This document shows, in pieces, positions 37,377 to 56,889 of a DNA stretch of 64,000 bases. The translations under genes were made by a program, and so were the position numbers. The stretch comes from Ensifer sp. (GTDB lineage: Bacteria; Pseudomonadota; Alphaproteobacteria; Rhizobiales; Rhizobiaceae). The stretch covers positions 10,154 to 74,153 of the forward strand of contig NZ_DASYHB010000121.1 of assembly GCF_035999185.1 (NCBI RefSeq), read 5' to 3'. Every line of letters starts with the position of its first letter. Positions within the stretch are counted from its first letter, which is position 1. Below the pieces are notes generated by a model, which was not told where the DNA came from, made no database searches, and saw only the letters and a list, made by a program, of their open reading frames with translations.

Positions 37377-38206
37377 GCGCGCTTCTGACGGTAGAAGACC
37401 TCAAGGTCTCGTTTCCGACCCGCACCGGCCTCATCGAGGCCGTGCGCGGCGTCTCCTTCACGCTCGGCCGCGAACGCCTCGGCATCGTCGGCGAAAGCGG
37501 CTCCGGCAAGTCGCAGACCGGCCGGGCGATCATGGGGCTGACGCCTTCACACGCACAGGTGACGGCAAAGCAACTGTCCTTCGACGGCATCGACCTCTTG
37601 TCCGCGTCGCCGAAGGTCCGCCGGGACCTCAGGGGCAAGCGCATCGCCATGATCCTGCAGGATCCGAAATACTCGCTGAACCCGGTCATGAGCATCGGCC
37701 GGCAGATCGTCGAGACGCTCAGGCAGCACGAGAATGTCAACCGGGGTGAAGCCCGCGAGCGGGCGCTCGACATGCTCGCAGCCGTCCAGATCCGCGACCC
37801 GAAGCGCGTCTACGATCTCTATCCGCACGAGGTTTCGGGCGGCATGGGTCAGCGCGCGATGATCGCGATGATGCTGGTTGCCGGACCGGAACTCCTGATC
37901 GCCGACGAGCCGACCTCGGCGCTCGACGTGACGGTCCAGCTCGAGGTGCTCGGTATCCTCGACAAGCTCGTGGCCGACCGCGGCATGGGCCTGATCTTCG
38001 TCTCGCACGACCTCAGGCTCGTCTCGTCCTTCTGCGACCGGGTGATCGTCATGTATGCCGGCCGGATCGTCGAGGAGCTGGCGGCGTCCGAGCTTGCCAA
38101 CGCCAAGCATCCCTATACCCAAGGGCTTCTGAATTGCATGCCGGCGATCGGCTCCGATCGCCATCCCCTGCCGGTCCTCGACCGCAAGCCGGAGTGGGCC
38201 CAATGA
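37373..38206 (+). CDS. dppD: Dipeptide ABC transporter ATP-binding protein
   Basis: GESGSGKS, VSGGMGQR, ADEPT, HPYTQGLL. Confidence 0.88.
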   Translation: MSALLTVEDLKVSFPTRTGLIEAVRGVSFTLGRERLGIVGESGSGKSQTGRAIMGLTPSHAQVTAKQLSFDGIDLLSASPKVRRDLRGKRIAMILQDPKYSLNPVMSIGRQIVETLRQHENVNRGEARERALDMLAAVQIRDPKRVYDLYPHEVSGGMGQRAMIAMMLVAGPELLIADEPTSALDVTVQLEVLGILDKLVADRGMGLIFVSHDLRLVSSFCDRVIVMYAGRIVEELAASELANAKHPYTQGLLNCMPAIGSDRHPLPVLDRKPEWAQ

Positions 38207-38970
38207 CATCAGCCGTTTCTGTTTCGAATGTCGTCGTCACCTATGACGAGTTCAAGGCGTTGAACGACGTCAGCGTCGAGATCGCGCCCGGCGAATCCTT
38301 CGGGCTCGTCGGTGAATCCGGATCGGGCAAGTCGACCCTGCTGCGGGCCGTCGCTGGTCTGGCGCCGGTCACGTCAGGCACGATCCGTGTCCATGATCGG
38401 GTGCTCAAGGGCTCCAAGCGCGACAAGGCTTTTTATCGCGCCGTGCAGATGGTCTTCCAGGACCCTTACGGCTCGCTGCATCCGCGTCAGACGATCGACC
38501 GGCAACTGCTCGAACCGCTGGCCGTCCACGGTGTCGCCGACGGCGAACGGCGCATTCTGAAGGCGTTGGACGAGGTCGGCCTCGGATCCGGTTTCCGGTT
38601 CCGCTATCCGCACCAGCTCTCGGGCGGCCAGCGCCAGCGCATCGCAATCGCCCGGGCGCTGATCCTCGAACCGTCGATCCTGCTTCTCGACGAGCCGACT
38701 TCGGCGCTCGACGCGTCTGTGCAGGCGGAAGTGCTGAACCTTCTTGAGCAGGTCAGGCGCGACCGCAAGCTCACCTTCATCATGGTCAGCCACGACCTCG
38801 GCGTCGTTACCCATATGTGTGACCGGTTGGCGGTGATGCAGGGCGGCCGCGTCGTCGAACGGCTGTCGTCAGCCGATCTCGTCGCCGGGCGCATCGGCGA
38901 GGACTATACGCGCAGCTTGATGGTGGCGAGCAAGGGCTTTCAGCGCAAGGACGCCGCTGCGACCGTGTGA
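38203..38970 (+). CDS. dppF: Dipeptide ABC transporter ATP-binding protein
   Basis: [22 protein letters not shown]. Confidence 0.88.
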   Translation: MTSAVSVSNVVVTYDEFKALNDVSVEIAPGESFGLVGESGSGKSTLLRAVAGLAPVTSGTIRVHDRVLKGSKRDKAFYRAVQMVFQDPYGSLHPRQTIDRQLLEPLAVHGVADGERRILKALDEVGLGSGFRFRYPHQLSGGQRQRIAIARALILEPSILLLDEPTSALDASVQAEVLNLLEQVRRDRKLTFIMVSHDLGVVTHMCDRLAVMQGGRVVERLSSADLVAGRIGEDYTRSLMVASKGFQRKDAAATV

Positions 38971-39039: not shown

Positions 39040-39777
39040 TCAGGCGCTTTCCCGCCAGACCGAGGTGGAGTCGGTGATCACCTTTTGAATGTGTCGCTGT
39101 TCGCGCCATTCACGTCCCATATCCTTGATCACAGGGCATGCGTCTGGCGAGTAAATGTAGTTGCGACGGCTCGCGACATAGTCTTCCATCACCGGGTTGA
39201 CGCCCGAATAGAACTGCTTCTCCGGATCCCTGGAAAGGTCCATCAGACCGGCGCAGTGCCGAGCGAAGCCACCACGCAGGATCGAGGGCGAGGTGGTGAA
39301 CTTCGGGAAGGTCCGAAACAGTGGGATCCTGATCCCGAAGAGGTGCGCATATTCGTTGCGCCGATGGAAGTGGCCCTTGCGGCCGATATCCCAGTTCTGG
39401 TCCGCCGTATGGAACGACACCTGGCTTATCGTCGGGTCGGCGAAGGGCGCCAGCAGTTCCTCGCCCATATCCCTCAAGGAAATCCAGTCGTCCTCAAGAT
39501 GGAAGACGTAGTCGGCACTTGAGGCAGACCAGAGCCTGGCGACGGCCGCGCAGAAGCCCGGGCTTTCCGGCTGGAAAATGGTGGCCTCAGGAAAATGCCT
39601 GCGGAAGATCTCGACGCAGGCGCGATGGTCGTCCACCGACCCGAAGACCGGGTCGAGATTGAGATAGGCGCCGCGCAGGTTGAGCTTGCCAAAGATTTTC
39701 TCTCCGAAGCTCGCGAGCGTCTGGTCAAGCAAATCCGGGCGCCGGGTGGCGACAACGCAAAGGTCAATCGTGGACAT
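39040..39777 (-). CDS. Glycosyltransferase, GT-A/GT2-like
   Basis: N-terminal beta strand with RRPDLLDQTLASF, FHLEDDW DxD-like motif. Confidence 0.7.
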   Translation of the reverse strand: MSTIDLCVVATRRPDLLDQTLASFGEKIFGKLNLRGAYLNLDPVFGSVDDHRACVEIFRRHFPEATIFQPESPGFCAAVARLWSASSADYVFHLEDDWISLRDMGEELLAPFADPTISQVSFHTADQNWDIGRKGHFHRRNEYAHLFGIRIPLFRTFPKFTTSPSILRGGFARHCAGLMDLSRDPEKQFYSGVNPVMEDYVASRRNYIYSPDACPVIKDMGREWREQRHIQKVITDSTSVWRESA

Positions 39778-39934
39778 AACACATCCTTGGGTGTGTTTTT
39801 TGCAACCGTCAAGACCCACGCGCGGCTCGATCTCGCTTCAATTGTGCAAACCCACCCCTAGGCGATCAACGTGGTTGATTTCCGCCCTTAAAGGGGAAGG
39901 TTGGACGAACCGCCCGCGCCCTGGGCGCTGAAAA

Positions 39935-41167
39935 TCAGAATACGCTGAGCTCCGGTATAGCCACGACGAAGCGGCCGCCCCAGTCGCGGATCGCAGCGTT
40001 GTCGGCAACGATCTCTGCCTTCAGGTTCCACGGCAGGATAACCAGATAATCGGGCCTTGCGTGCTCGATGCGGGTCGGCGCGTGCACCGGAATATGGGTT
40101 CCGGGCAAGAGCTTGCCCTGCTTCAGGTCGTTCCGGTCCACCGCGAAGGCGATCTCGCTTTGCGACAGGCCGCAGACATTGAGGAAGGTGTTGCCTTTCG
40201 CAGCGGCGCCATAGGCCGCCACCGTTTTTCCTTCGGCCTTGGCGCGCGCCAGGAAGTCCTGGAAATCCTTGCAGACGGCGGCAATGCGGGTGTCGAAGGC
40301 CTGGTAGGTTTCCATCTTCATCAGTCCGGCAACCGCCTCGGTGGCGCGCAGCGTCTCAAGCTGAAGCGTGGCCTTCCGCACGCCCGATGCAAGCTGTGCA
40401 TAGACGCGCAACGAGCCGCCATGCGTCGGCAGTTCCTCGACGTCGAAGACCTTCAGGCCGGAACTTTCGAAGATGCGTTCCACGGCGGCGAGCGACAGAT
40501 ACGAGTAGTGCTCGTGATAGATCGTGTCGAACTGCACCTCTTCCATCAGCCGCAGAAGATGCGGGAACTCGAAGGTCGCCACGCCATCCGGCTTCAGCAG
40601 TATGGCAAAGCCACCCACGAAGTCGGCGATGTCAGGCACATGGGCGAGGACGTTGTTGGCGGCCGTCAGGTCGGCGCGGATCCCGCGCTTGACGAGTTCG
40701 GTTGCGGTCTCGCGGCCGAAGAAGGCGACTTCGGTCGGAACCTTGCGTTCCTCGGCAAGCCGTGCCGCGTTGGCGGCGGGCTCGACGCCGAGTACCGGAA
40801 TGCCCTTGTCGACGAAGTACTGCAGCAGGTAGCCGTCATTGGACGCAATCTCGACGACCTGGGAACTGTCGTTCAGCCCGAAGCGCTCGGTCATGGTGTC
40901 GGCATAGCGGCGAGCATGCTCGAGCCAGCTTGTCGAGAAAGACGAGAGGTAGGCGTAACCGTCGGTGAAGATCTCGTGCGCGGGCACGTTCTCCGTCGTC
41001 TGCACCAGCAGGCATTCGGAGCAGACCATTGCTTTCAGGGGAAACGAGCGCTCGCGCGCGATCGCTTCTTCGGTCGGCTCAAGGAACGAGTTCGACCACG
41101 GGGTCGAGCCCAGGTCGGCGACGACAGTGTTGAGCGGTGTCGAGCAGAAACGGCAATTGTGGGACAT
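39935..41167 (-). CDS. NDP-hexose 3-C-methyltransferase family
   Basis: Zn-binding CRFC...CSEC, VEIASNDG SAM motif, TIYHEH, YGAAAKG, LPWN. Confidence 0.88.
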   Translation of the reverse strand: MSHNCRFCSTPLNTVVADLGSTPWSNSFLEPTEEAIARERSFPLKAMVCSECLLVQTTENVPAHEIFTDGYAYLSSFSTSWLEHARRYADTMTERFGLNDSSQVVEIASNDGYLLQYFVDKGIPVLGVEPAANAARLAEERKVPTEVAFFGRETATELVKRGIRADLTAANNVLAHVPDIADFVGGFAILLKPDGVATFEFPHLLRLMEEVQFDTIYHEHYSYLSLAAVERIFESSGLKVFDVEELPTHGGSLRVYAQLASGVRKATLQLETLRATEAVAGLMKMETYQAFDTRIAAVCKDFQDFLARAKAEGKTVAAYGAAAKGNTFLNVCGLSQSEIAFAVDRNDLKQGKLLPGTHIPVHAPTRIEHARPDYLVILPWNLKAEIVADNAAIRDWGGRFVVAIPELSVF

Positions 41168-41175
41168 CGAAGTCG

Positions 41176-42243
41176 TTAGCCTCTCATGAATGCGTCGATT
41201 TGGCTGAGTGTGAGGTCGCGAGCAGCGCCGCCGCGCCGCCAGCCGTCATACCAGCGCGCGGTCCAGTTGATTGCCTCGATTTGGCTGAGGCGGGCGATCC
41301 AGGACAGGGTGCTTGCGGCAAGCGCCGGGTCGAGGCCGAGCGTCTTCATCTCGCGGGGTTGATCTTCCGACGATGTGTCGCGCCATTCGGTCGGCAGGCC
41401 CATCGCGGTCTGGATGGCGGCGGCGACGTCCTTGACGGGGATCTGTGGCTCGGCTGGGGAGGGCCCGAAATTCAGGGCGGTCACCTCGGTCTCGCCGGCG
41501 TGGAGCGCTTCGGCAAGGGTGAAGTAGCCGTTGAGGCAATCAAGCACGTGCTGCCAAGGCCGGGTGGCGAGCGGGCTGCGGATGTCAAGCGTTTTGCCCG
41601 ACTGGGCCGCGCGCACGATGTCGGGAACCAGTCGGTCGACCGAGAAGTCGCCGCCGCCGAGCACGTTGCCCCCGCGGGCCGTCGCCACCTGCACGCCGCG
41701 TTCGCGCAGAAACGAATCCCGCCAGGTCGAGACGACCAGTTCGCACGCAGCCTTCGAGCCGGAATAGGGGTCGTGGCCACCAAGCACGGCGTCTTCCGGG
41801 AAGTGCCGACCGCTTTCGTCGTTGCGATAGACCTTGTCGGTGGTCACGACGACGACGGTCTTGAGCGCGGGCGAGTGACGTGCTGCGTCCAGCAGGCGTA
41901 CCGTTCCCATGACGTTGACGTCGAACGTGTCGGCCGGCGTCCGGTAACTCTCGCGCACCAACGGCTGCGCCGCCATGTGGAGGATGATCTCCGGATCGCA
42001 CTTCAGGATCGCCGCGGCAAGCGTGTCGCTGTCGCGAATGTCGGCGAGGTATTCGTCGATGGTCTGGCCGGCGCCAAGCAGGGCGTGAAGGGAGGGCTCT
42101 GCCGCCGGCGGCAGGGCGTAACCGGTCACGCTGGCACCCATATTGGTCAGCCACAGTCGCGCCCAGCTCCCCTTGAAGCCGGTGTGGCCCGTCAGCAGCA
42201 CGCGCTTGCCGACCCAGAAGGATGGGTTTGCCAGCCGGCTCAT
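41176..42243 (-). CDS. rfbG: CDP-glucose 4,6-dehydratase
   Basis: TGHTGFKGSW, AAQPLVRESY, TTDKVY, YSGSK, RPWQHV. Confidence 0.93.
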   Translation of the reverse strand: MSRLANPSFWVGKRVLLTGHTGFKGSWARLWLTNMGASVTGYALPPAAEPSLHALLGAGQTIDEYLADIRDSDTLAAAILKCDPEIILHMAAQPLVRESYRTPADTFDVNVMGTVRLLDAARHSPALKTVVVVTTDKVYRNDESGRHFPEDAVLGGHDPYSGSKAACELVVSTWRDSFLRERGVQVATARGGNVLGGGDFSVDRLVPDIVRAAQSGKTLDIRSPLATRPWQHVLDCLNGYFTLAEALHAGETEVTALNFGPSPAEPQIPVKDVAAAIQTAMGLPTEWRDTSSEDQPREMKTLGLDPALAASTLSWIARLSQIEAINWTARWYDGWRRGGAARDLTLSQIDAFMRG

Positions 42244-43007
42244 GCCCAGACTTTCCAGGGCGCAGCACCGCCCTGCCAGAGGTCTTCGAGCTGGTTCTTG
42301 TCGCGCAGCGTATCCATCGGACGCCAGAAACCGCCATGTTCAAAGGCCATCAACTGGCCTTCTGCCGCAAGGCCTTCCAAAGGCTCGGCCTCGAACGGCG
42401 TGTGGTCCCCTTCGATCCGGTCGAGGACCGAGCGGTTGAGGACGAAGAAGCCGCCATTGATGTGACCGTTGTCGCCGGCCGGCTTCTCGATGAAGCTTTG
42501 AACCCGCCCATCGTTGACAGCAAGCGCGCCGTAGCGGCCCGGCGGGATGACGCTTGTCACGGTTGCCTGACGGCCGTGATGACGGTGGAAATCGGTCAGC
42601 GCCTTGATGTCGATGTTTGCGACGCCGTCACCATAGGTAAGGCAGAACGTATCGCCCAGGTGATCGGCGACGCGTTTCAGACGTCCGCCGGTCATGGAAT
42701 CGGTTCCGGTATCGACGAGCGTGACGCGCCAGGGCTCGGCCTTGTTCGAGTGAAACAGGGTCTCGCCCGTTCTCATGCAATAGGTGACGTCGGAGGAGTG
42801 CAGCACGTAGTTGGCGAAGTACTCCTTGATCATGTAGCCACGGTAGCCGAGGCAGATCACGAAATCCGAAAACCCGTAGTGGCTGTAGATCTTCATGATG
42901 TGCCAAAGGATCGGCCGACCGCCGATCTCGATCATCGGTTTCGGCCTGAGATGGCTCTCTTCCGAGATGCGCGTGCCGTAGCCACCGGCAAGAATGACAA
43001 CCTTCAT
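42240..43007 (-). CDS. rfbF: Glucose-1-phosphate cytidylyltransferase
   Basis: LAGGYGTRISEES..PKPM, TGGRLKR, TYGDG, WRPMDTLRD. Confidence 0.93.
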   Translation of the reverse strand: MKVVILAGGYGTRISEESHLRPKPMIEIGGRPILWHIMKIYSHYGFSDFVICLGYRGYMIKEYFANYVLHSSDVTYCMRTGETLFHSNKAEPWRVTLVDTGTDSMTGGRLKRVADHLGDTFCLTYGDGVANIDIKALTDFHRHHGRQATVTSVIPPGRYGALAVNDGRVQSFIEKPAGDNGHINGGFFVLNRSVLDRIEGDHTPFEAEPLEGLAAEGQLMAFEHGGFWRPMDTLRDKNQLEDLWQGGAAPWKVWA

Positions 43008-43210
43008 GTAAGTGCCCTGTAGTTGCATGTGCCCCGAACACAACGGGTTGCCTCGCCGTATATCAGCGCGACCTTGTGTGTAGATGGCTCCGGCGCATTG
43101 ACAATCCCGCTTGTCGAACTATGAACCACGACACACAACTTTTTGGCGCGAAGCGCCAGGTTCATTGCACGATTTGCGATATTAATGCAATCGCTGAGTG
43201 AGACGGCGGA

Positions 43211-44062
43211 ATGGCGAGAGTAAGCATCGGTTTGCCGACCTATAACGGCGCGGAGTTCATCGGCGAGTGCCTTGCCTCCCTTCGGGATCAGAGCTTCGAG
43301 GATTTTGAAGTCTTCATTTCCGACAACGGCTCGACCGACGGCACCAGCGACATTTGTGCGGACTTCGCAAGGACGGACAAACGGTTCCGTCACGTGTTCT
43401 ATCCTGAAACCGTACCCGCGACGGAGAACTTCATAAGAGCGCGGGATATGACGAGCGCGCCCTATTTTTGCTGGCGCGCGGATGACGACCTGGCCGATCG
43501 CGAGCATCTCGCGGGCCTGGTGTCGGCGCTGGATGGAAACCCCCAAGCGGTGCTGGCGGTTTCTCCGGTGCTTCGGATTACGGAAAGCGCTGAGCGGCTG
43601 TTCGAGCTTCCGTCTTCAATCGCGAACGACCGCGTGGGGCGTATTCGTGATATCCTGATCGGGTGCCATCCCAGCTGGTTCTACGGTCTATGGAGGCGAG
43701 AGGCGACCGACAGCGCCCTGGGCGGTTTCGCGAACTACGAGTTTGCCTGGGCGGCCGATCATCTGGCGATGCTGCCGGCGATCCTCGACAATGCCGTTGC
43801 GCTGTCGCCCGAAGGGCGCTTCATTCAGCGCATCAAGCGGCAAGCGAACTACCATCTGCCGCCGGACAAGTTGCTGCAGGCGCGTAAGCAGTATCGGCAA
43901 CTTGCGCTTGAGATGATCGCTGAGCGCGAGTGGTCACCGGCCGAATTGAAGATCATAAGACGCGCGCTGGAACTCCACCTGGAACGCCGTGTTGCGCCGT
44001 GGTTCAAGACGCACAAGCGTGCGATAAAGCATAAACTGCGCTCGGCCTTGCCGTTCGGTTGA
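43211..44062 (+). CDS. GT2 family glycosyltransferase
   Basis: SIGLPTYN, DNGSTDGT, ADDD. Confidence 0.88.
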   Translation: MARVSIGLPTYNGAEFIGECLASLRDQSFEDFEVFISDNGSTDGTSDICADFARTDKRFRHVFYPETVPATENFIRARDMTSAPYFCWRADDDLADREHLAGLVSALDGNPQAVLAVSPVLRITESAERLFELPSSIANDRVGRIRDILIGCHPSWFYGLWRREATDSALGGFANYEFAWAADHLAMLPAILDNAVALSPEGRFIQRIKRQANYHLPPDKLLQARKQYRQLALEMIAEREWSPAELKIIRRALELHLERRVAPWFKTHKRAIKHKLRSALPFG

Positions 44063-44071
44063 AGACCGGCC

Positions 44072-45181
44072 TCAGGCCGCAGCGCAATCGCGCAGGACCT
44101 GAACCACGCGCGCGATCTCTTCGCCCGTCATGTCGTGATAGCTCGGCAGGTTGATCGCCCGGCCGGGCAAGTCGTAGGCCGTGGCGTTGGCCGGCACGTC
44201 ATCGAAGGGCGGCAGGGAGCTCAGCGGCCAGAAGAAGACGCGGGCGTCGATGTTTTCGACCGCAAAGGCTTCCTGCAACCTTTCCCGTGTTACGCCTGTC
44301 TCCTGCGCAAAGACGACGGTCGGCATCCAGAAACCGTTTTTCGTTCCTTCCGGCTCCGGGTTCATGGCCAGGGCGTTCACGCCGGAAAGCTGTTCCCGGT
44401 AGGCGTAGAAGATCTCGCGCTTGCGCTCCACCAGTTCATCGACGCGCTCGATCTGCGCCAGGCCGATGGCGGCCTGCAGGTTCGACATCTTGTACTTGAA
44501 GCCGATTTCGTCCGGCCAGAACTGCTTTTTCTGGCCGCGGGCGCGGCCATGGTTGGAAAGCGTCAGGACCTTGTCGTAAAGCTTGCTGTCGCTGGTGACG
44601 AACATGCCGCCTTCGCCAGTCGTCACGGTCTTGGTGCCGTGGAAGGAGAAGGCACCGAAGGCGCCAAGCGAACCGGCCTTACGTCCGCGCCATTCCGAGC
44701 CGAGCGCTTCGGCGGCATCCTCGACGACCGGAATGTTGTGCCGCGCGCCGATCTCGAGCAGACGATCCATGTCGCAGAGATTGCCGTAAATATGCACGGC
44801 CATGATGGCCTTCGTCTTCGGCGTAATCGCCGATTCAACTTTTTCCGGATCGATGCACCAGCTGTCTGCGAGGACGTCGACGAAAACAGGCTTCGCGCCG
44901 AGGTGAACGATCGGGGCAGCTGAAGCCGTCCAATTGGTGTCGGCGAGGATAACCTCGTCACCCGGTCCGACGCCGAGAGCGGCAAGCCCCATGTGCAATG
45001 CACCGGTGCAGCTCGACGTCGAGATCGCGTGCGTCGTGCCCAGATGTGCAGCAAAGGCAGCCTCGAACCGGTTGATATAGTCGTAGCAGCGCTCGCCCCA
45101 TCCGTTGGCCGCGGCGTCTGTGGCATAGGCGACTTCACGCTCTGTGATCGAGGGCTTGGTGTAGAGAATGCGGGGTTTCAT
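44072..45181 (-). CDS. DegT/DnrJ/EryC1/StrS sugar aminotransferase (perosamine synthase-like)
   Basis: SSCTGALH, VEDAAEALG, FSFHGTK (PLP Lys), GEGG, GFKYKM. Confidence 0.92.
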   Translation of the reverse strand: MKPRILYTKPSITEREVAYATDAAANGWGERCYDYINRFEAAFAAHLGTTHAISTSSCTGALHMGLAALGVGPGDEVILADTNWTASAAPIVHLGAKPVFVDVLADSWCIDPEKVESAITPKTKAIMAVHIYGNLCDMDRLLEIGARHNIPVVEDAAEALGSEWRGRKAGSLGAFGAFSFHGTKTVTTGEGGMFVTSDSKLYDKVLTLSNHGRARGQKKQFWPDEIGFKYKMSNLQAAIGLAQIERVDELVERKREIFYAYREQLSGVNALAMNPEPEGTKNGFWMPTVVFAQETGVTRERLQEAFAVENIDARVFFWPLSSLPPFDDVPANATAYDLPGRAINLPSYHDMTGEEIARVVQVLRDCAAA

Positions 45182-45295
45182 GGGGCGCCGTTCGATAGAG
45201 ACCTGGACGTTGCTGGAAAGCCGTGGATGCCGGAGCGGGAGAGACAAGGCATCTTGTTTCGTTCTCCCGCTGCCGCTTGTTCTGGTTCGCCCGCG

Positions 45296-46447
45296 TCAGA
45301 GCCAGACGTGGTCGAGGCCTGGTCGCTCGAGCCACGGTTGCGCGGCGATGGCGGCGCGGGCCTTCAAGGGGTTGAGGCCGATGAACAGCGCCTCGGCGTC
45401 CCCCGGCAGGTCCTCTGGCGACAGGACGGGAATGCCGAAGTGGGTTGCGCCCTTCATGTTTTCGTTGCGATCCAGGAACGCCACGACATCGACGGCCTGG
45501 CCGATGCGCCCGTAAATCCAGCTTCCGTAGAAGCCGGCGCCGTAGATCGCGACCTTGCGCTTGGCGTAGCGCTCAACCCCGTCTTTAAGTTTTACCGATG
45601 CCTGATCCCAGAAGGCGCAGATGTCACGCGCCTGTTTGGCCGCCTCAACGGCCGCAGCGGACGTGCCTGGAACGTCGAGCGCCGCCGCGGAGCTGCGCGC
45701 GACGACGAAAAAGGCGCCGGGAAACGAGGTGTTGTCGACGGTTTCCACCTCAAAGCCTGCGCTTGTGAGGGCATGGACAATCGACGCCTGGCTGAAATGG
45801 TTGAGGTGGTCGGCAACCGCCATGTCACCGGGATTGCCCGCAACGTCGGGCACGGAGAACAGGAAGGTGCCACCCGGGCGCAGCAGGTTGTGCACGTCGC
45901 GCATGAAGCCGACGGGATCGGCCACGTGCTCGACGACGAAATGGCACATGACCGCCTCAAACGTCTTCTGCCAGGTCTCGGGCACCGTATAGGTTGCCTG
46001 TGCCGCTTCCGGCACCCAGCCCTGCCAGGCGGCCGCATAGTCCGAACTGACATCGAAGACGTGGGGGTGAAGGTCGTCGCGCGCCGCAACCATCTTGCGC
46101 AACGTGTCCGCCTTGGCGGCACCATAGTCGAGGATCGAAGCGCTCTTGGGAAGGTCAAGCAGGCGGAGTGACAATGCGGCCTGGTGATCGGTGCGATAGA
46201 TGATCGTGCCATCTGCCGCGATCGCGAAGAACTGGTCGTGGTTCTCGCTGCTGAGAGAGATCCGATAGCCGGTGTCGTAGAAGGCCTCGATATCAGGAAT
46301 ATCGTCGCTTTGCGCATGTCCGCAGACGCCGCACACGTAGACGCGCGTCGGCACGTCGAGCAACGTGGTGCTCGACGTCAGGGCCGGCGCAGGCACTTCA
46401 TAGGATGGGGCGCCGATGTGGTCGCCACAAACTCGGCAGGCAGTCAT
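45296..46447 (-). CDS. Zn-finger class I SAM-dependent methyltransferase (C-methyltransferase-like architecture)
   Basis: CRVC...CGVC, ILDYGA, HFVVEHV, C-terminal IYGAG Rossmann-like domain. Confidence 0.78.
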   Translation of the reverse strand: MTACRVCGDHIGAPSYEVPAPALTSSTTLLDVPTRVYVCGVCGHAQSDDIPDIEAFYDTGYRISLSSENHDQFFAIAADGTIIYRTDHQAALSLRLLDLPKSASILDYGAAKADTLRKMVAARDDLHPHVFDVSSDYAAAWQGWVPEAAQATYTVPETWQKTFEAVMCHFVVEHVADPVGFMRDVHNLLRPGGTFLFSVPDVAGNPGDMAVADHLNHFSQASIVHALTSAGFEVETVDNTSFPGAFFVVARSSAAALDVPGTSAAAVEAAKQARDICAFWDQASVKLKDGVERYAKRKVAIYGAGFYGSWIYGRIGQAVDVVAFLDRNENMKGATHFGIPVLSPEDLPGDAEALFIGLNPLKARAAIAAQPWLERPGLDHVWL

Positions 46448-47301
46448 GCCGGCTCTCCTTGCGGAGCGACCAGCTCCGGCAGGACGTCGGCGAACTTCAC
46501 GCCGGCCGCGAACGAGCCCTTCCATCCGATGCGGATGCCCACCGGTTCGGCGAAGTTGAAGTAGCGGAACTGTATGCTCCAGCGCGGGATCTGCGAGACA
46601 TTGTGGCCCGACTGGTGCAGAGTCAGGAAGTCCATCAGAATGAGGTCGCCGGGCTTGCTGAGCGGCGCGACATGCTTGTAGCGCGCCAGCCGTTCCTCGC
46701 CCTTGTGGAGATGCAGCGCATAGGCACCCGTCTTTCCGGCGCCGGCGTCATCCTCATACACGGGCACGAGCCCCTCGGCATGCGAGCCCTCGGCGATCTG
46801 AACCGGCCCCATGTCTGCGCTGACTGGCAGCAACGGTGTCCAGAAGACAATGCCGTCGACGCTGCGCAATTGCGACGGGAATTCCTGATGCCACTGTGCG
46901 CGGAACTTTTCCTCGCCGGGATTGTCGATACGCATCCCGTAGCCGCCAGCGGCGATACCGGGAATGCTGCCAGGTCGCAGCGCCTTGAAGACCTCGTCGT
47001 TGGCAGCGGCGCTGACGAGGCGCATGAAGGCGGGGATCTGCTTCACCGCATCATAGACCTCGCCGCCCCAGGAACGGTTGACGGCAATGAGCCTGCGGTA
47101 GGCGATAGACATCGCTTCCTCAGCGGTCCCAGTCGGCGCGTCGACGCCGTACTTCTTGCAAAGCAGTTCGAGGATCTGGCGGACGCCCTCCTGGATGGGG
47201 GCGATCTCAGCCTGGATATCGTAGAAGCCCGGCACCAGATGATAGCCGTCGGTCTCGAACTGTTGGCGCGCGCTTTCGGAAATGATGGTGCTGTTCTTCA
47301 T
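46444..47301 (-). CDS. Phytanoyl-CoA dioxygenase (PhyH) family Fe(II)/2-oxoglutarate oxygenase
   Basis: FETDGY start, WHQE and LHQSG facial triad (HxE...H), GSH. Confidence 0.82.
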   Translation of the reverse strand: MKNSTIISESARQQFETDGYHLVPGFYDIQAEIAPIQEGVRQILELLCKKYGVDAPTGTAEEAMSIAYRRLIAVNRSWGGEVYDAVKQIPAFMRLVSAAANDEVFKALRPGSIPGIAAGGYGMRIDNPGEEKFRAQWHQEFPSQLRSVDGIVFWTPLLPVSADMGPVQIAEGSHAEGLVPVYEDDAGAGKTGAYALHLHKGEERLARYKHVAPLSKPGDLILMDFLTLHQSGHNVSQIPRWSIQFRYFNFAEPVGIRIGWKGSFAAGVKFADVLPELVAPQGEPA

Positions 47302-48023
47302 GATACGCGATCTTCCTCCTTCAGGAATTCCCGCCAAGACACGGTCGTCGGTGACAAATGCTTGCGCGCATCGGGACCGGTGCGCGCGATGAGGTCCAGT
47401 ACGGATACATAAGGCGTGAAGGTTTCGCGGGGCTGGGGCCACGGCGTGCAGCTATAGCTCATGTACTCGACGTGGACGCCGGCGGCTTCGAATGCGCCGT
47501 GATCGAGATAGTTGGCAGCGCCGTGCCCGGTCAGATAGCGCGTGCCTCCAGCCGAAAGCACCAAATTGAGCACGCGCTGCCACGACGTTCCGGTAATCGC
47601 CATTTCACTGGAGCGTTGCACGATGCGTTCAGCGCCGATGCCCATGTAGCGGGCAGAGACCTCGATGCTGGCGATCAGCAGATCGCAAACCGTCTCCTTG
47701 GCGTAGACCTCGTCGAAGACAGCCAGCGCATCGTCGATGAAGGGCGCTCCGCTCAGTGACTGGCGCAGCAGCGAGCGGTGGCTTGCGCGCCACTCTTCGC
47801 CGGTTCCCGATAGGTCACGGATTTTCTGAAAGCTTCCCTTGCCGGCAAGCGGGATCGTCATCCACGCCCGATCGTTGCCGTTCAGCAGTTGGATGCGATT
47901 GGTGAAGCTGCCTTTCGAAAACTGGGCATCGTCCAGATAGATGTATCCGTCGGCAACCATCAGTTGCTCAAAGAAGCCCGGCCAGGGAAAAAGCATCGGC
48001 TGTGAGATGACGACAGCTGTCAC
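47298..48023 (-). CDS. WbqC family protein
   Basis: QP..FPW.GFF, DDAQF, NRIQL, YLTGHGA..Y, S.LDL motifs. Confidence 0.85.
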   Translation of the reverse strand: MTAVVISQPMLFPWPGFFEQLMVADGYIYLDDAQFSKGSFTNRIQLLNGNDRAWMTIPLAGKGSFQKIRDLSGTGEEWRASHRSLLRQSLSGAPFIDDALAVFDEVYAKETVCDLLIASIEVSARYMGIGAERIVQRSSEMAITGTSWQRVLNLVLSAGGTRYLTGHGAANYLDHGAFEAAGVHVEYMSYSCTPWPQPRETFTPYVSVLDLIARTGPDARKHLSPTTVSWREFLKEEDRVS

Positions 48024-48580
48024 GAGCCCACCTCGCTCAACACATGCTCCAGCAGCGCGACATCATGTTGGTGCCCTTCGGCGTCGACGAAGTGTTTCTC
48101 CATCGTGCCGACAATGCGGTAGCCGAGCCCGAGATGAAGCTTCATGGAGGGGTGATTGTCCACCCTGATTTCCGCAAGGAGCTTGCGTAGCCCCAGCTGG
48201 ATACGGCTGAACGACATTAGTTGTCGCAGCGCCGATTGGCCAAGCCCACGCCCCCGGGCGTGGGCGGCAAGCACGATCCCGCCATATCCGGTTCCGTTCT
48301 TGCGGTGAACTTGACTGACCTGAACGTAACCGACGGCTCTTCGGGAAGCGCCATCTTCAATCACAAGGAAGGCCTCGCCTGGTTGGCTTTTCCGCCGATC
48401 CACCCATGCTTCCAGGTCGTCGTCGGTCGTTCCGTCTGGCACGGTTAGCAAGAGCGATTGCAGTTCTCGGTCGCGACGCAGCGCAAACAACAGTGGAAAA
48501 TCACCGGCATCGACGGAGCGCAGGTTTAGGTTGCCCTCCGCCGTGTGGGCAATTCCCGCATCCTCTATTTGCGTACGCAC
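48020..48580 (-). CDS. GNAT (RimJ/RimL-like) N-acyltransferase
   Basis: RGRGLG acyl-CoA motif, N..S..L...LGY..VG. Confidence 0.85.
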   Translation of the reverse strand: MRTQIEDAGIAHTAEGNLNLRSVDAGDFPLLFALRRDRELQSLLLTVPDGTTDDDLEAWVDRRKSQPGEAFLVIEDGASRRAVGYVQVSQVHRKNGTGYGGIVLAAHARGRGLGQSALRQLMSFSRIQLGLRKLLAEIRVDNHPSMKLHLGLGYRIVGTMEKHFVDAEGHQHDVALLEHVLSEVGS

Positions 48581-49317
48581 TTCAGGTAGCCCCCAGGCGA
48601 GCTCGATAGCACGAGTTTCCCGTTGAGGACGGGATCGGTCTCGAAGCGATCCGTTTCCTTGAGATAGGTGTTCAGCGCCGCATAGGGCTCGTCGCCCGGA
48701 TACCAGATTTTGGAGCGCTTTGTCGGCGTTTGCGAGGTGTCGCCCCAGCCAAGCAAGGTATCTGCGACAACGATGTACTGGCCTTCGGTTACCAGCGGGC
48801 CATAGGTCCGCAGCTCGTCCAGCACATGGTCGCGGCTGTGGTCGCTGTCGAGCACCACCATGACCGAGGCGCCTGGCGGGATTTCGGCCTTGACCTTCGC
48901 CAGCGTTTCTTCGGTCGTTGAAGGGCCCTCGATCAGCGTGATGCGCGAGGACATGGGGTGTTGCTCGATCGAGTCACGGTTGTGGGCGCGGATGTCGATG
49001 TCGACGCCGATGACCTTGCCCTTGCCGATCAGCTGCAGCATGGCCGCCATGAAGATCACCGAGCCGCCGCGGGCGACGCCTGTCTCGATGATGATGTCGG
49101 GCTTGGTGTTCCAGATGACTTCCTGGGTCGCCATGACATCGGCCGGCATCTGGATGATCGGCACGCCCATGAAGGACCACAGGTAGGAGTAGTCGTACTT
49201 GTCGAGCGTCACCAGGGTGTCGAGCGATTGCTGGAATGCGCCTTGATCCTGGCCCAGCGCAAGCGCCATTTCCGTCTTGTGGGCCTCGAATGCGAGACGA
49301 TCGTCTGCTACTGTCAT
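48565..49317 (-). CDS. CmcI / rhamnosyl O-methyltransferase family
   Basis: W.GVPIIQMP.D, KPDIIIETGVARGGS, VLDSDH. Confidence 0.88.
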   Translation of the reverse strand: MTVADDRLAFEAHKTEMALALGQDQGAFQQSLDTLVTLDKYDYSYLWSFMGVPIIQMPADVMATQEVIWNTKPDIIIETGVARGGSVIFMAAMLQLIGKGKVIGVDIDIRAHNRDSIEQHPMSSRITLIEGPSTTEETLAKVKAEIPPGASVMVVLDSDHSRDHVLDELRTYGPLVTEGQYIVVADTLLGWGDTSQTPTKRSKIWYPGDEPYAALNTYLKETDRFETDPVLNGKLVLSSSPGGYLKCVRK

Positions 49318-49502
49318 TGCTCCTGACACCCTTTTGAATGCACTCTATGGATGCGCCAACGGTGGCGAACCGTGAACTGTGGCGGTTTCGCCGATTCGCG
49401 ACGCTTTTCCTGTGAACGCTTTCATGTCGGCAATTGTAAATACGGTCAAGGCCGGTTTCTTAGGGGCGAAAGGGTCGTCCTTGGTTTCCGGCGGAAGGTT
49501 TC

Positions 49503-50048
49503 ATGTCGCGCTTCGATCGAATTTCTACACCCATAGCGGGTCTGATGGTTGTCGAGCGGCAGCGCAGGGGCGACGATCGCGGTTTCTTTTCGCGCTTCTT
49601 CTGCCGCGACGCGCTTGCCGACTTCGGCGGAGGTGGGACGATCGCCCAGATCAACCATACGCTGACGCAGGCGGCCGGCACGATCCGCGGGCTGCACTTT
49701 CAGCGCGCGCCGCATGACGAGGCGAAATTCGTCTCTTGTCTTTCCGGCGCCGTCTTCGACGTCGCGGTCGACCTCAGACCAGGTTCTCCGACCTATCTGC
49801 ATTGGCACGGCGAAGTGCTGAGTGCGGAAAACGGACGCTCGATGATGATCCCTGGCGGCTTTGCCCATGGATTTCAGACGCTCGCAGACGATTGCGAACT
49901 GATCTATCTGCACGACAAGCCCTATGCACCCGAGGCTGAGGGCGGGCTTAATCCGCTCGATCCGCGACTGGCAATCGCCTGGCCGTTGCCGGTCGGGCAG
50001 ATGTCGGCGCGCGACCAGGCCCTGCCTGTGCTGCCGATCGCGAGCTGA
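49503..50048 (+). CDS. rfbC: NDP-4-keto-6-deoxyhexose 3,5-epimerase (RmlC/RfbC family)
   Basis: DDRGFF, IRGLHFQ, VAVDLR, FAHGFQTL, MSARD. Confidence 0.9.
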   Translation: MSRFDRISTPIAGLMVVERQRRGDDRGFFSRFFCRDALADFGGGGTIAQINHTLTQAAGTIRGLHFQRAPHDEAKFVSCLSGAVFDVAVDLRPGSPTYLHWHGEVLSAENGRSMMIPGGFAHGFQTLADDCELIYLHDKPYAPEAEGGLNPLDPRLAIAWPLPVGQMSARDQALPVLPIAS

Positions 50049-50132
50049 TCGCCGAAGCCTCCATCGTTGACTTCGCAGCGGATGGGAGGAGAATGAAGTC
50101 TCCGCGCCACCACGACAGAAGGGGTGTCGACG

Positions 50133-50603
50133 ATGACGATCGCCAGAAAACTTCAGAACTACATCGATGGTGCCGGGGTCGCCTACGACACCGTCGACCA
50201 TCATCGCACGGCCACCACCAGCCAGACCGCCAGGGCAGCGCATGTGCCCGGCAGCAGGCTTGCCAAGTCCGTGGTCGTCCACCATGAGATGGGCTACGTG
50301 CTTGCTGTGGTTCCGAGCACGCACCGGGTCGAGCTCTCCACCCTGCAGGATGTGATGGACCGCCGCCTCGGCCTTGCTTCGGAAGAGGAGGTGTGCACGC
50401 TTTTTGCCGATTGCGATATCGGCGCGGTGCCGCCTGTCGGATCGGCCTATGACGTGCCGGTGCTGCTCGACGAAAGCCTGGGTGCCGTCAACGACGTCTA
50501 TTTCGAGGGCGGCGACCACAGAACGCTGGTGCACATGAGCGGACCGAACTTCCGCAACCTGATGAAGGATGCGCGGATCGCCCGCTTCAGCCACCCGGCG
50601 TGA
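50133..50603 (+). CDS. YbaK/ProX aminoacyl-tRNA deacylase-like protein
   Basis: AKSVVV, LASEEE, GAVPPVG, EGGDH. Confidence 0.82.
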   Translation: MTIARKLQNYIDGAGVAYDTVDHHRTATTSQTARAAHVPGSRLAKSVVVHHEMGYVLAVVPSTHRVELSTLQDVMDRRLGLASEEEVCTLFADCDIGAVPPVGSAYDVPVLLDESLGAVNDVYFEGGDHRTLVHMSGPNFRNLMKDARIARFSHPA

Positions 50604-53131: not shown

Positions 53132-53208
53132 TGGCGCACCCGACAGGATTCGAACCTGTGACCTTTGGAATCGGAATCCAACACTCTATCCAGCTGAGCT
53201 ACGGGTGC
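53132..53208 (-). tRNA. tRNA-Arg(CCG)
   Basis: Reverse complement folds: GCACCCG/CGGGTGC acceptor, D-arm, TTGGA-TTCCGAT-TCCAA anticodon arm, GTTCGAATC T-loop, encoded CCA; 77 nt. Confidence 0.97.
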
Positions 53209-53532: not shown

Positions 53533-55077
53533 TTGGCCATTCGAAACCTCACGACCGGAGAACCGGCGTTGGAGAGGCTGCGCTCCGATCCCGCGTTGAT
53601 GTTACTTCTCGCCTTGTCGGCAGTGCTCTTCGTGCTGAACACCTGGAACGGCATCGGCATCCTTCCGGATTCGACCCGCTATATGCAGATCGTCAGCACG
53701 CCCTACGACGCGCCGCTTTACGCGTGGCTTTTGGGCGCCGGCGGATCCCTTGGGCTCGAACTCGAGCATGTCGCGCTGGGCGCTGCATTCCTGCTCTATC
53801 TTCTGAACACCTATCTCGTCTTCTCGCTGTTCAAGACGGCGTTGCCGGACCAGCCGTTCTATGTGACCGTTGGGACGCTGCTGATCATCGTCCATCCGAC
53901 CTTCCTCTGGACGAGCACCATCGCGATGTCCGAGGCGCTGTTCCTGGCGCTGACGTTTCTCGCCGTCCGTTTTTTCATGCGCTACATGCGGGAGCAGGGG
54001 CGGGGGGCTTTGCTAGCGTCGTCGGCCTGCATCGGTCTTGCCATGCTCGCCCGTTTCGTGGCGCCACCAATCGGCGCGGCTTTTGCAACCATTGCGCTGT
54101 TTTACAATTCGGCGCGCTCCCTGCGCCAGAAGCTGGTTGACGTCGTCATCCTTTTTATCGGCAGCGCCGGTATCTTCCTCGCCTGGGTGATCGTCAGCAA
54201 GCTCCTTGTCGGCCGGGCTGTTGGCCGCGCGGTCTGGTTTTATGGCAACGCTGACGCGGAGCGCTGGCTCGCCGGCCTGTCCCTGCTTGCGAGCTTCCTG
54301 TTACCAAGTCAGGTGCCGCAGATCATCCGCATTCCGGTGCTGCTTCTGGCGCTTGTCATTGCAACGGCGGTCCTGGTTTTAACCCTCAAGCGGAACTGGC
54401 CCGAACGCAAGCCCGACGATCGCGATCTGATCGTGCTCATCTTCGGTCTGTTTGGATATTTCTACCTGCTGTTCGTCGTGCTCGCGGTGCATGTGGAGGC
54501 GAACCTGCAGCTCAACTCGCGCTACTCGCTGCCCTTCTATGTCGGGATCATGTTCGTCCTGGTGATTGCAGCGGCAGACTACTGCGGCCGGCGCGCTTCC
54601 GCCCCGGTCGCCCGTCGATCGATCGCCATTATTCTGCTTTGCCTTCTCTCCATCCACACGCTGCGCAGTGCCGCGCAAACCACCGAGGCCTTCCGGGACG
54701 GCGTCGGCTTTCAAAGTACTGCATGGAAATCGTCGCCGATCGTCGGCGCCGTGCGGGCGCTGCCGGCGGACGCGGTCATTTTCACCAATGCCTGCGACCC
54801 GCTGAATTTTCTTACGCGCCGCTGGACGGATTGGATCCCCTCCTACAGCGAGAGGCGGACCGGCCTTGAAAGCGACGCCGGCCCGCTGGATGCGCAGCTC
54901 GTGCGCCTGCGCGAGGATCTGGTGAAAAAGAAGGCCTATGTCGTCTTCGTCGATGCGATCGACTGGCGGTTTTATCTGGTGACGGAGAAGGAGCTGGTCA
55001 AGCTCGCCAAGCTGAAGCTTGTGCGCTCGGAGAGGGACGGCCGCATCTACCAGGCGGAAGATGCCATCGCGCCATAG
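53533..55077 (+). CDS. Polytopic GT-C-type glycosyltransferase (ArnT/PMT-like)
   Basis: Roughly 11-13 hydrophobic segments, PDSTRY in first outer loop, MSEALF, RY..P before a soluble C-terminal domain; TTG start. Confidence 0.65.
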
Positions 55078-55123
55078 GGGGCGCCGGGACAGGAGCATGT
55101 GATCTTAATCCAAGGAGAAGGAC

Positions 55124-56134: not shown

Positions 56135-56889
56135 TGGTGGGCTCCAGACTGCCGAATGGCGCTGTTGACTGGGATCAATTGCGCCTTGTCGTCTTCGATC
56201 TGGACGGCACGCTCTACGACCAGCGGCGGTTGCGCAGCGTCATGCTGCTGAGGCTTCTTGCCGATGCGGTACGCACGCGCAGTCTCGACAAGCTTCGCAT
56301 CTTGAGGGCCTTTCGGGACTGCCGCGAGGAGCTTGGCGAAGCGATGGCAACGGACATCGCCACACGGCAATTCGCGCTTGCGGCCGAGCGTTGCGGACGC
56401 CCGGTCGCAACCGTGAAGGCAACGGTCGAGGAATGGATCGAGCGCCGGCCTCTCGATATTCTGCGCTCCTGCCGCTGTCGCGGGGTCGAGCGAGTGTTCG
56501 CGGGCCTTGCGGCTGAGGGAAAAACGCTCGCGGTCCTTTCGGATTACCCGGCTGCAAGGAAGCTGAAGGCCCTCGGCCTCGACGCGGACATTGTCGTCTG
56601 CGGGACTGACCCCGAGGTCGGCGTTCTGAAACCGCATCCGGCCGGCCTTGCCCACGTGCTCAACCGTGCGCAGGCAACTCCCGAAACGGCGATCATGATC
56701 GGCGACCGGGTCGACCGTGACGGGGCTGTTGCCAAGGGCCTCGGCATGCGGGCGCTGATCCGCAGTGCCCGGCCGATTGCGGGTGTCGATACATTCCGCG
56801 GCTATGACGACGAAATCTTTCGTCCCCTGACCGAGCGGCTCGGGGTGGCCGCCGCGGCGTCGCCGTCCTCCGTCACGACATCATCTTGA
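56134..56889 (+). CDS. HAD-family phosphatase
   Basis: FDLDGTLYD, LSD, KPHP, IGDR; TAATG coupling to the UbiA gene. Confidence 0.85.
   Translation: MVGSRLPNGAVDWDQLRLVVFDLDGTLYDQRRLRSVMLLRLLADAVRTRSLDKLRILRAFRDCREELGEAMATDIATRQFALAAERCGRPVATVKATVEEWIERRPLDILRSCRCRGVERVFAGLAAEGKTLAVLSDYPAARKLKALGLDADIVVCGTDPEVGVLKPHPAGLAHVLNRAQATPETAIMIGDRVDRDGAVAKGLGMRALIRSARPIAGVDTFRGYDDEIFRPLTERLGVAAAASPSSVTTSS

Follow-up and report, generated by a model that had tools for sequence, protein, structure and literature searches.

A CDP-sugar gene block of Ensifer sp. predicted to build a 4-acylamino-4,6-dideoxy-3-C-methylhexose, with flagellin as a favoured acceptor

As Li et al. reportedly described in 2017, the synthesis of cereose and cillose in Bacillus cereus involves a cytidine diphosphate (CDP)-glucose synthase, a 4,6-dehydratase and the C3-methylation of a CDP-4-keto-6-deoxyhexose. 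N-acylkansosamine from the lipooligosaccharide (LOS) of Mycobacterium kansasii, which is defined by chemistry and not by reference genes, is 4-(2-methoxypropionamido)-4,6-dideoxy-3-C-methyl-2-O-methyl-L-mannose. The modified viosamine of Pseudomonas syringae flagellin and the anthrose of the Bacillus anthracis exosporium are 4-acylamino-4,6-dideoxy-2-O-methyl hexoses, which cap filament-protein glycans; their pathways combine an aminotransferase, an N-acyltransferase, a methyltransferase and a dedicated glycosyltransferase. The O-antigen of Escherichia coli O121 and Shigella dysenteriae 7, with its Qui4N(N-acetylglycyl), is the source of the name WbqC; there, a WbqC-family gene accompanies those of a C4 aminotransferase and an acetyltransferase, as would be expected if a 4-amino sugar were aminoacylated and then N-acetylated. 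We know of no characterised CDP-4-aminosugar, nor of a pathway leading to one, and a literature search for CDP-4-amino sugars found no paper. The CDP-cereose/cillose pathway is listed among surveyed monosaccharide biosynthesis pathways (PMC7725333). Here, we analysed a gene block at positions 39040-50048 of a 64,000-nucleotide stretch of Ensifer sp. DNA (contig NZ_DASYHB010000121.1 of assembly GCF_035999185.1), hereafter the window. The block probably encodes a nucleotide-sugar pathway whose product would be CDP-4-acylamino-4,6-dideoxy-3-C-methylhexose, with flagellin as the favoured acceptor, and the closest biochemical precedent for its first three predicted steps is the CDP-cereose/cillose pathway of B. 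cereus.

The robust part of this prediction, as judged from the encoded enzymes, is CDP-4-amino-4,6-dideoxy-3-C-methylhexose, probably of the L-series. The entry through CDP-glucose is well supported: RfbF (DdhA) and RfbG (DdhB) both scored above the curated equivalog cut-offs by a wide margin, and they would form CDP-D-glucose and CDP-4-keto-6-deoxy-D-glucose, respectively. The translation of the C-methyltransferase gene, which contains FDTIYHEHYSYLS, reads FDTIYHEH, so that the TIYHEH motif is intact, as had been noted in the initial annotation of this DNA. Its best match in the Protein Data Bank (PDB) was MtmC (4rv9, E = 2.6e-83, full length), and KijD1 and TcaB9 were also matched; the domains PF08421 (71 bits) and PF08484 (197 bits) were found. 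The four Cys residues of the Zn ribbon aligned with those of MtmC, in which FDTIYHEH is identical, and this stretch with the catalytic Tyr-His-Glu-His was invariant in six orthologues of the C-methyltransferase. The PDB entries of MtmC and KijD1 are annotated as sugar 3-C-methyltransferases, and TcaB9 is an enzyme that we take to be a C3 methyltransferase as well. By homology, the protein is predicted to be a TylC3-type enzyme, which would place a methyl group on C3 via a 3,4-enediolate. The residues that characterise the epimerase were all kept when the RmlC-type protein was aligned with Salmonella RmlC (1dzr), namely a Lys, a Tyr, the His of RGLHFQ and the Asp of SARD. This epimerase would invert C5, and also C3 if it acted before methylation, yielding an L-series 4-ketosugar.

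The remaining core enzyme, a pyridoxal phosphate (PLP)-dependent aminotransferase, is predicted to act at C4, converting the 4-keto group to a 4-amino group. Its best PDB match was the GDP-perosamine synthase 3dr7 (E = 6e-80), followed by ArnB. It has the PF01041 fold and the internal-aldimine Lys of the DegT aminotransferases: the Lys of HGTKTVT, which sits in FHGTKTVTTGEGG, aligned with the catalytic (Schiff-base) Lys of perosamine synthase. The C4 enzymes Per (272 bits) and ArnB (192 bits) scored higher against it than the C3 enzymes QdtB (156 bits) and WbpE (140 bits) or than the dehydratases E1 (136 bits) and ColD, and its length is 369-391 amino acids (aa), compared with about 437 for E1-type proteins. 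As the initial annotation had it, neither a 4-ketoreductase nor a 2,3-dehydratase is apparent: no 2,3-dehydratase domain was found in any cluster gene by Pfam and NCBIfam scans, and RfbG is the only short-chain dehydrogenase/reductase (SDR) between 39 and 50 kb.

A comparison of the cluster across Ensifer, a check which the initial annotation had proposed, provided what we regard as the best in-silico support for C4 amination, namely the complementarity between the aminotransferase and an SDR. It covered 22 congeneric species and 19 chromosomal loci holding the cluster; as the species are related, the locus counts do not represent independent events. In 20 of the 22 species, a related cluster or its flank gene was found at the same oppF-ybaK chromosomal site. 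The genes for RfbF, RfbG, the C-methyltransferase and RmlC were present in all 19 loci, and the CmcI-type gene in all but one of them (L019). Five loci of type A, i.e., that of the window and four others, carry the aminotransferase, a second methyltransferase, PhyH and WbqC, with or without a GNAT protein, which loci L009 and L020 of this type lack. Loci of type B contain the aminotransferase, a small methyltransferase, an SDR, an ATP-grasp protein and a metallophosphoesterase, followed by a 40%-identical WbqC, and two hybrid loci combine types A and B. The six loci of type C are devoid of the aminotransferase and WbqC, and have an SDR and other methyl- or acetyltransferases instead. Thus, the aminotransferase and WbqC always occurred together in the Ensifer loci compared, while an extra SDR was present in all six loci lacking the aminotransferase, as well as in a pSymB-type paralogue, but in none of the five type A loci. 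This SDR could reduce C4. In a megablast search of PLSDB plasmids with the cluster, the sole match was an unannotated, 77%-identical three-gene pSymB paralogue (SMb21416-18 type). Judging from these gene contents, the oppF-ybaK site is a variable glycan locus at which tailoring modules are swapped in Ensifer.

The six type C loci (L015, L016, L017, L025, L026 and L027) encode RfbF, RfbG, the C-methyltransferase, RmlC, the SDR and a 40-44% identical CmcI-like methyltransferase, and in some cases also a hexapeptide acetyltransferase. By analogy, these are the enzymes that would be needed to make a CDP-6-deoxy-3-C-methyl-2-O-methylhexose of the vinelose type, the type to which CDP-vinelose of Azotobacter belongs.

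Because the aminotransferase is closest to C4 enzymes and because of its complementarity with the SDR in Ensifer, we favour amination at C4. The proposal in the initial annotation that C4 of a CDP-linked 3-C-methyl-6-deoxyhexose is aminated rather than reduced, and that the sugar is then N-acylated and methylated, is thus supported at the sequence level by the Schiff-base Lys, the SDR complementarity, the co-occurrence of the aminotransferase with WbqC, and the linkage of the genes in 64-74 of 80 related loci (see below). All eight gene types that it had named are present, with a reservation concerning one of the two family 2 glycosyltransferases (GT2s), and the block also holds the second methyltransferase, PhyH, WbqC and GNAT genes, which it had listed separately.

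The steps following amination are more speculative. WbqC, GNAT or both would acylate the new amine, the PhyH oxygenase would hydroxylate the acyl group or the sugar, and the CmcI-type and second TcaB9-like methyltransferases would add further methyl groups, possibly in a pattern as in N-acylkansosamine (2-O-methyl plus methoxy or N-methyl). In a kansosamine-like version, the 2-O-methyl group would come from the CmcI-family enzyme, and a short acyl group would undergo alpha-hydroxylation by PhyH, followed by O-methylation. Alternatively, an N-acetyl-aminoacyl group might be attached by WbqC and GNAT, and then hydroxylated and methylated. The second methyltransferase matched generic S-adenosylmethionine (SAM)-methyltransferase Pfam domains and not those specific for sugar C-methyltransferases. 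In a profile comparison with the C-methyltransferase family (hhalign), however, it was aligned over 345 columns (probability 98.4%, E = 5e-15), which shows it, by sequence, as a divergent full-length paralogue with a Zn ribbon, a SAM domain and a C-terminal Rossmann-like domain. Its invariant D213-H214 aligned with E219-H220 of the C-methyltransferase, and counterparts of the Tyr and the first His of the YHEH motif are missing. This protein and PhyH had remote sequence matches only in the PDB, and the second methyltransferase travels with PhyH, not with the core genes. PhyH retains the HxE...H facial triad and the 2-oxoglutarate-binding Arg of Fe(II)/2-oxoglutarate oxygenases, and WHQE...LHxSG...RWS(I/L)Q(F/Y)R was conserved among five diverse orthologues with identities as low as 53%. 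The CmcI-type methyltransferase is 81-86% identical to the copies of Rhizobium etli and Hyphomicrobium, and its relationship with the CmcI structure (2bm8) is remote (5.6e-6).

WbqC matches the PF08889 family model, by which, and not by function, the family is defined. No match to PDB sequences was found with phmmer. Its AlphaFold model had a predicted local distance difference test (pLDDT) value of 96 with an alignment of 82 sequences, as opposed to 35 from the single sequence, and the top PDB fold match of this model was BshC (4wbd; probability 0.92, E = 0.065, template modelling (TM) score 0.43), an enzyme that attaches cysteine to the amino group of glucosaminyl-malate. In a published operon map, WbqC is found together with a dedicated prolyl-tRNA synthetase (ProRS), an unusual tRNA, LmbE and glycosyltransferases (PMC10404621). 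In view of the BshC-like fold and this operon context, a reasonable putative role of the modelled protein is to transfer an aminoacyl or acyl group to the amine of a sugar, and since the aminotransferase and WbqC always occur together, the new C4 amine would be its target. The fold match is weak, as the E value and TM score indicate, which weighs against this role. A still bolder proposal, which we hold to be rather unlikely, is that WbqC represents a new, distantly BshC-like class of ligases that couples the C4 amine of the CDP-3-C-methyl sugar to an amino acid, that GNAT, PhyH and the second methyltransferase acetylate, hydroxylate and methylate this residue, and that an undescribed sugar-amino-acid conjugate is thereby placed on a long flagellin. 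By analogy with the operons containing a dedicated ProRS and tRNA (PMC10404621), WbqC might use aminoacyl-tRNA. A literature search found no functional study on WbqC, kansosamine, dideoxy-3-C-methyl sugars or vinelose.

The gene set is not confined to Ensifer. Scanning with a PhyH profile, in one genome for each species, revealed 188 relatives, and the counts given here come from the best 80 named loci. These loci were picked by the PhyH gene alone, a partner gene was counted if it lay within 10 kb, and several of the misses correspond to contig ends. The second methyltransferase accompanied PhyH in all 80 loci, the aminotransferase and WbqC in 78 each, the CmcI-type gene in 75, the C-methyltransferase in 74, RmlC in 73, rfbF and rfbG in 64 each, and GNAT in 55. 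Among the hosts are Ensifer, at least ten Rhizobium species, Pararhizobium, Azorhizobium, Hyphomicrobium, Rhodobacteraceae, Sphingobium, Parvibaculum, an acidobacterium and Cyanobium/Synechococcus. A single co-directional operon of R. etli SEMIA 471 encodes the ten enzymes along with a 414-aa GT2, and all ten are co-located in Stappia albiluteola as well. Homologues of the second methyltransferase with 55-65% identity are found in many Hyphomicrobiales, and a PhyH orthologue was present in two of 300 genomes sampled evenly from the order. CmcI and PhyH are highly conserved between Ensifer, Rhizobium and Hyphomicrobium (81-86% and 72-82% identity, respectively), whereas the core is less conserved between Ensifer and R. 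etli (49% for RfbG and 44% for RmlC). The cluster is thus a copy of a cassette that is widespread and horizontally mobile and has no assigned product. The initial annotation had called a sugar of this type unusual for a rhizobial surface glycan; the gene set, however, is common in Rhizobiaceae genomes.

The finished CDP-sugar would be used in the cytoplasm by two candidate transferases. One is the 283-aa GT2 encoded inside the cluster, which has 75%-identical orthologues at the same place in the Ensifer loci L008 and L019 and 25-39%-identical relatives in 18 of the 80 related loci. The other is a 419-aa GT2 (GT2-419) encoded on another contig of this genome (G000:C36:37313-38569), which is 54% identical to the 414-aa GT2 embedded in the cassette of the Rhizobium, Hyphomicrobium and Sphingobium operons. 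The product of orf259 (39040-39819), which the initial annotation had counted as a second GT2 of the cluster, is doubtful as such: it scored below the Pfam cut-off (Table 1), it is absent from 77 of the 80 loci, with all three occurrences in Ensifer, and it is kept in Ensifer species without the cluster (L018 and L024). On account of this distribution, we rejected it as the second transferase of the pathway; it is probably an Ensifer-specific flank gene outside the conserved pathway.

As for the acceptor, flagellin is the single most likely one in this Ensifer, judging from gene neighbourhoods, with roughly even odds between it and a polysaccharide. The gene of GT2-419 is convergent with that of a 587-aa flagellin and with an Acyl_transf_3 gene, and the pair of GT2-419 and flagellin genes was found in at least six further Ensifer species. 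All 15 Ensifer genomes with GT2-419 have a CDP-3-C-methyl locus, and the four without such a chromosomal locus are also without this GT2, although these genomes largely represent one clade. In Sphingobium sufflavum HL-25 (L099: 2464-20200), the ten-gene operon with the 414-aa GT2 is directly followed by genes of an 819-aa protein with GT41 and tetratricopeptide repeat (TPR) domains, a flagellin, a sigma-54 activator and FliF, an arrangement that has the appearance of a genuine flagellin glycosylation island centred on the cassette. The lack of lipid-carrier and export genes in the cluster also fits with cytoplasmic protein glycosylation. The flagellins of Rhizobium leguminosarum stain as glycoproteins (PMC2936354). 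The sugar may thus decorate flagellin and not lipopolysaccharide (LPS) or the K-antigen.

The 587-aa flagellin (C36:39123-40886; L034:12124-13887, minus strand) has a central domain of about 340 aa with 20% Ser+Thr, and the Acyl_transf_3 gene adjoins its gene away from the sugar cluster (L034:14069-15115). Long flagellins encoded by open frames of 574-710 aa, with central domains 28-53% identical, are found elsewhere in several Ensifer species, some of them on other replicons. In one more Ensifer species (G014), a 126-aa open reading frame (ORF; L035:8118-8498) matches the C-terminal 106 residues of the long flagellin with 87% identity; by its sequence, it is a flagellin deletion remnant beside an intact GT2-419 gene.

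Several observations weigh against flagellin as the acceptor and are in line with the same sugar being placed on a surface polysaccharide (an LPS O-chain, a K-antigen or an exopolysaccharide side group) assembled by genes elsewhere, which we consider a substantial possibility, albeit below an even chance. Among the 80 related loci, flagellin lies within 10 kb in just one. GT2-419 persists in Ensifer species that lost the neighbouring flagellin. The R. etli operon adjoins Wzz-like (Wzz/GNVR), cellulase-family and Acyl_transf_3 genes, and the 283-aa GT2 of the cluster resembles polysaccharide GT2s such as TuaG and PglI. The cassette is also present in picocyanobacteria, which lack flagella, so that flagellin is not its universal acceptor. 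On the other hand, the adjacency to flagellin was found in two independent lineages, and no Wzx, Wzy, polysaccharide or ABC exporter, chain-length regulator or initiating phosphoglycosyltransferase was encoded by the Pfam-scanned ORFs between 29.7 and 62.6 kb. With no export or polymerisation genes there or in its flanks, the locus does not have the make-up of an O-antigen or capsule gene cluster. Nor is it itself a flagellin glycosylation island: no flagellin gene was found in the 64-kb window by tblastn, the flanks contain transport and envelope genes, and only the separate GT2-419 gene adjoins a flagellin gene. A paper by De Maayer and Cowan on flagellin islands makes no mention of CDP-glucose genes.

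The structure of the sugar itself is open to other readings, all of which we regard as improbable to different degrees. Methylation might occur at C5, as with NovU, or the two methyltransferases might act on two carbons, giving a noviose-like gem-dimethyl or a doubly branched sugar. NovU-type C5-methyltransferases belong to the same family as TylC3, MtmC and TcaB9, and hence C3 and C5 methylation are not told apart by sequence; NovW is the third-best structural relative of the RmlC-type epimerase, and the second methyltransferase, as a paralogue over the full length, has retained the acid-His dyad. We nevertheless deem such a product improbable, as the three solved homologues of the C-methyltransferase are all C3 enzymes (TcaB9 presumably so), the best of them sharing the whole FDTIYHEH, and as the second methyltransferase lacks counterparts of its Tyr and first His and travels with PhyH. 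Still less probable, in our estimation, is that the aminotransferase and the tailoring enzymes use a GDP- or dTDP-4-keto-6-deoxyhexose from another locus, with the CDP and C-methyl genes feeding a separate product. The closest solved relative of the aminotransferase does use a GDP-sugar, this genome encodes Gmd and RmlB (both on contig C144), and one Hyphomicrobium contig holds the tailoring genes with no rfbF or rfbG within 10 kb. However, the aminotransferase is tightly linked to the CDP and C-methyl genes across phyla (see the counts above), which argues against a substrate from another locus; without it, the CDP branch in the window would have no enzyme for the 4-keto group, while the sister loci without the aminotransferase all have an SDR. 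That the DegT protein is instead a pyridoxamine phosphate (PMP)-dependent 3-dehydratase (E1/ColD-like) or a C3 aminotransferase, leading to a 3-deoxy or 3-amino sugar, is hardly to be expected at all. CDP pathways classically use the DegT-family dehydratase RfbH/E1, and a long DegT protein of this kind is encoded on contig C144 of this genome, but the DegT-family PMP dehydratases E1 and ColD have a His at the position of the catalytic Lys that is present here, the protein has the length and the scores of perosamine synthase rather than those of E1 or QdtB, and no 3,4-ketoisomerase or 2,3-dehydratase was found in the cluster by Pfam and NCBIfam scans. A C4-aminated, CDP-linked 3-C-methyl sugar thus remains the preferred product.

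The picocyanobacterial loci (L128-L136; Cyanobium, Synechococcus and Aphanothece) also show no rfbF or rfbG within 10 kb, which is a further point against a CDP-linked product of the cassette there. They keep the C-methyltransferase, RmlC, aminotransferase, CmcI, GNAT, WbqC, PhyH and second methyltransferase genes, and these organisms may differ in the activating nucleotide or in where the entry genes lie.

The genes of the block are listed in Table 1. ORFs were collected from six frames, filtered by third-position GC content (GC3), and scanned with Pfam and NCBIfam; 12 genes were found at 39040-50048, and their GC3 of 0.73-0.83 indicates that all 12 are coding. The strand order (-,+,-,+) corresponds to four alternating transcription units, in agreement with the initial annotation. 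The likely start of rfbF is the ATG at 43007, which gives the N-terminus MKVVILAGG. Stop-start overlaps of the ATGA or GTGA type at rfbF/rfbG, GNAT/WbqC, WbqC/PhyH and PhyH/second methyltransferase point to translational coupling; ATGA is the overlap of the RfbG start with the rfbF stop and of the PhyH start with the WbqC stop. The ends of the convergent in-cluster GT2 and aminotransferase genes (44062-44072) are 9 bp apart, so that an intergenic terminator hairpin would not fit between them.

Table 1. Genes of the sugar cluster and its boundaries in the window
Feature	Positions	Strand	Basis
Left boundary: last ATPase gene of oligopeptide ABC transporter	38134..38970	+	Pfam ABC_tran
259-aa GT-A-like protein (orf259), EDD motif	39040..39819	-	Pfam GT2, 16.4 bits vs cut-off 23.3
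NDP-hexose C-methyltransferase, TylC3/MtmC/TcaB9 type, predicted C3	39935..41167	-	Methyltransf_13, Methyltransf_23 (SAM), Methyltransf_14
RfbG, CDP-glucose 4,6-dehydratase	41176..42243	-	TIGR02622 equivalog, 452.7 bits vs cut-off 278
RfbF, glucose-1-phosphate cytidylyltransferase	42240..43007 (ORF open to 43043)	-	TIGR02623 equivalog, 439.8 bits vs cut-off 300
283-aa GT2 inside cluster	43211..44062	+	PF00535, 74.6 bits
DegT PLP-dependent sugar aminotransferase, predicted C4	44072..45181 (ORF open to 45247)	-	PF01041, 415 bits
Second methyltransferase, 383 aa	45296..46447	-	Generic SAM-methyltransferase Pfam matches; hhalign to C-methyltransferase family
PhyH-family Fe(II)/2-oxoglutarate oxygenase	46444..47301	-	PF05721, 2.2e-12
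WbqC-family protein, candidate aminoacyl/acyl ligase on C4 amine	47298..48023	-	PF08889, 192 bits
GNAT N-acetyltransferase, variable member of set	48020..48580	-	Acetyltransf_3, 5.7e-17
CmcI/rhamnosyl-O-methyltransferase family methyltransferase	48565..49317 (ORF open to 49329)	-	PF04989, 228.8 bits
RmlC-type 4-keto-6-deoxyhexose 3,5-epimerase	49503..50048	+	PF00908, 195 bits
Right boundary: YbaK-type aminoacyl-tRNA editing domain protein	50124..50603	+	PF04073, 89 bits

On one side, the block borders on the genes of the oligopeptide ABC transporter; on the other side lie those of the YbaK-type protein, an L,D-transpeptidase and an OmpA-like protein. The ATPase gene of the left flank is conserved (89-97%) and syntenic in all Ensifer chromosomal loci compared, and the YbaK-type gene of the right flank is syntenic in most of them. 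YbaK-type genes directly adjoin both the sugar cluster and the GT2-419 gene (L034:8882-9343), which is curious in view of the published operons in which WbqC occurs with a dedicated ProRS and tRNA; that the two represent a duplicated module was rejected, given an identity of no more than 37% over 41 aa. A tRNA was the only match when 38.5-53.6 kb were scanned with Rfam. Downstream, a gene group at 53533-59477, adjoining the tRNA at 53135-53208, encodes a GT-C (PMT_2) protein, a UbiA prenyltransferase, a HAD phosphatase, an SDR and a GMC oxidoreductase, and resembles a lipid-linked pentose glycosylation system. A second CDP-glucose locus of this genome (contig C144:96000-101000; L056:6200-10800) encodes RfbF (49% identity), RfbG (42%), the long RfbH/E1-like DegT protein, an SDR and a GT2; it has no C-methyltransferase gene and is of the classic 3,6-dideoxyhexose type.

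The kind of system described here, a deoxysugar tailoring pathway, is known, and the candidates for novelty are the CDP-linked 4-amino branched sugar, the function of WbqC and the second TcaB9-like methyltransferase. A core of seven to ten genes is spread over Alphaproteobacteria, Acidobacteria and picocyanobacteria. Solving the pathway would give a function to the WbqC domain family and to the second branch of TcaB9-like methyltransferases, yield a candidate for a rhizobial flagellin glycan, and offer a genetic handle on N-acylkansosamine-type sugars. The swapping of modules at one Ensifer site is, in addition, a natural experiment in surface-glycan diversification, with a bearing on recognition by phages, predators and plants.

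The C-methyltransferase shares the three-domain architecture, the Zn-ribbon Cys residues and the YHEH motif with MtmC, TcaB9 and KijD1, which act on dTDP-linked sugars of actinomycete antibiotics, whereas the substrate here is presumed to be CDP-linked and to keep its 2-OH, and the product would belong to a Gram-negative glycan. With the Caulobacter GDP-perosamine synthase Per (3dr4/3bn1), the aminotransferase shares fold type I of the DegT family, the catalytic Lys and the predicted C4 amination of a 4-keto-6-deoxyhexose, but its substrate would be a CDP-sugar that is tertiary at C3. The viosamine and anthrose pathways differ from the proposed one in being dTDP-based, in leaving C3 unbranched, and in having no WbqC, PhyH or second C-methyltransferase-like enzyme. 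In O121 and S. dysenteriae 7, the sugar is likewise dTDP-linked, without a C-methyl branch, and no oxygenase is involved; the role of WbqC there is also putative. The CDP-cereose/cillose pathway, which we compared by description and not by sequence, follows the same first-step logic and delivers its product to a surface protein fibre. In that pathway, however, the 4-keto group is reduced, while here an aminotransferase replaces the reductase, and it comprises no epimerase, WbqC, PhyH, GNAT or extra methyltransferases. N-acylkansosamine is a component of an actinobacterial glycolipid, and no Mycobacterium was found among the 80 best PhyH relatives, which suggests that the kansosamine tailoring enzymes are probably not orthologous to those of the cassette. 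The LOS cluster of M. kansasii does contain genes of a glucose-1-phosphate cytidylyltransferase, an SDR, a rhamnose epimerase and a methyltransferase, all of them absent from Mycobacterium marinum (PMC4403928), and the analogy with kansosamine is indirectly strengthened by these CDP-glucose-type genes. Like the product predicted for the Ensifer block, N-acylkansosamine is a methylated 6-deoxy sugar of the L-series with a 3-C-methyl branch and a 4-acylamino group.

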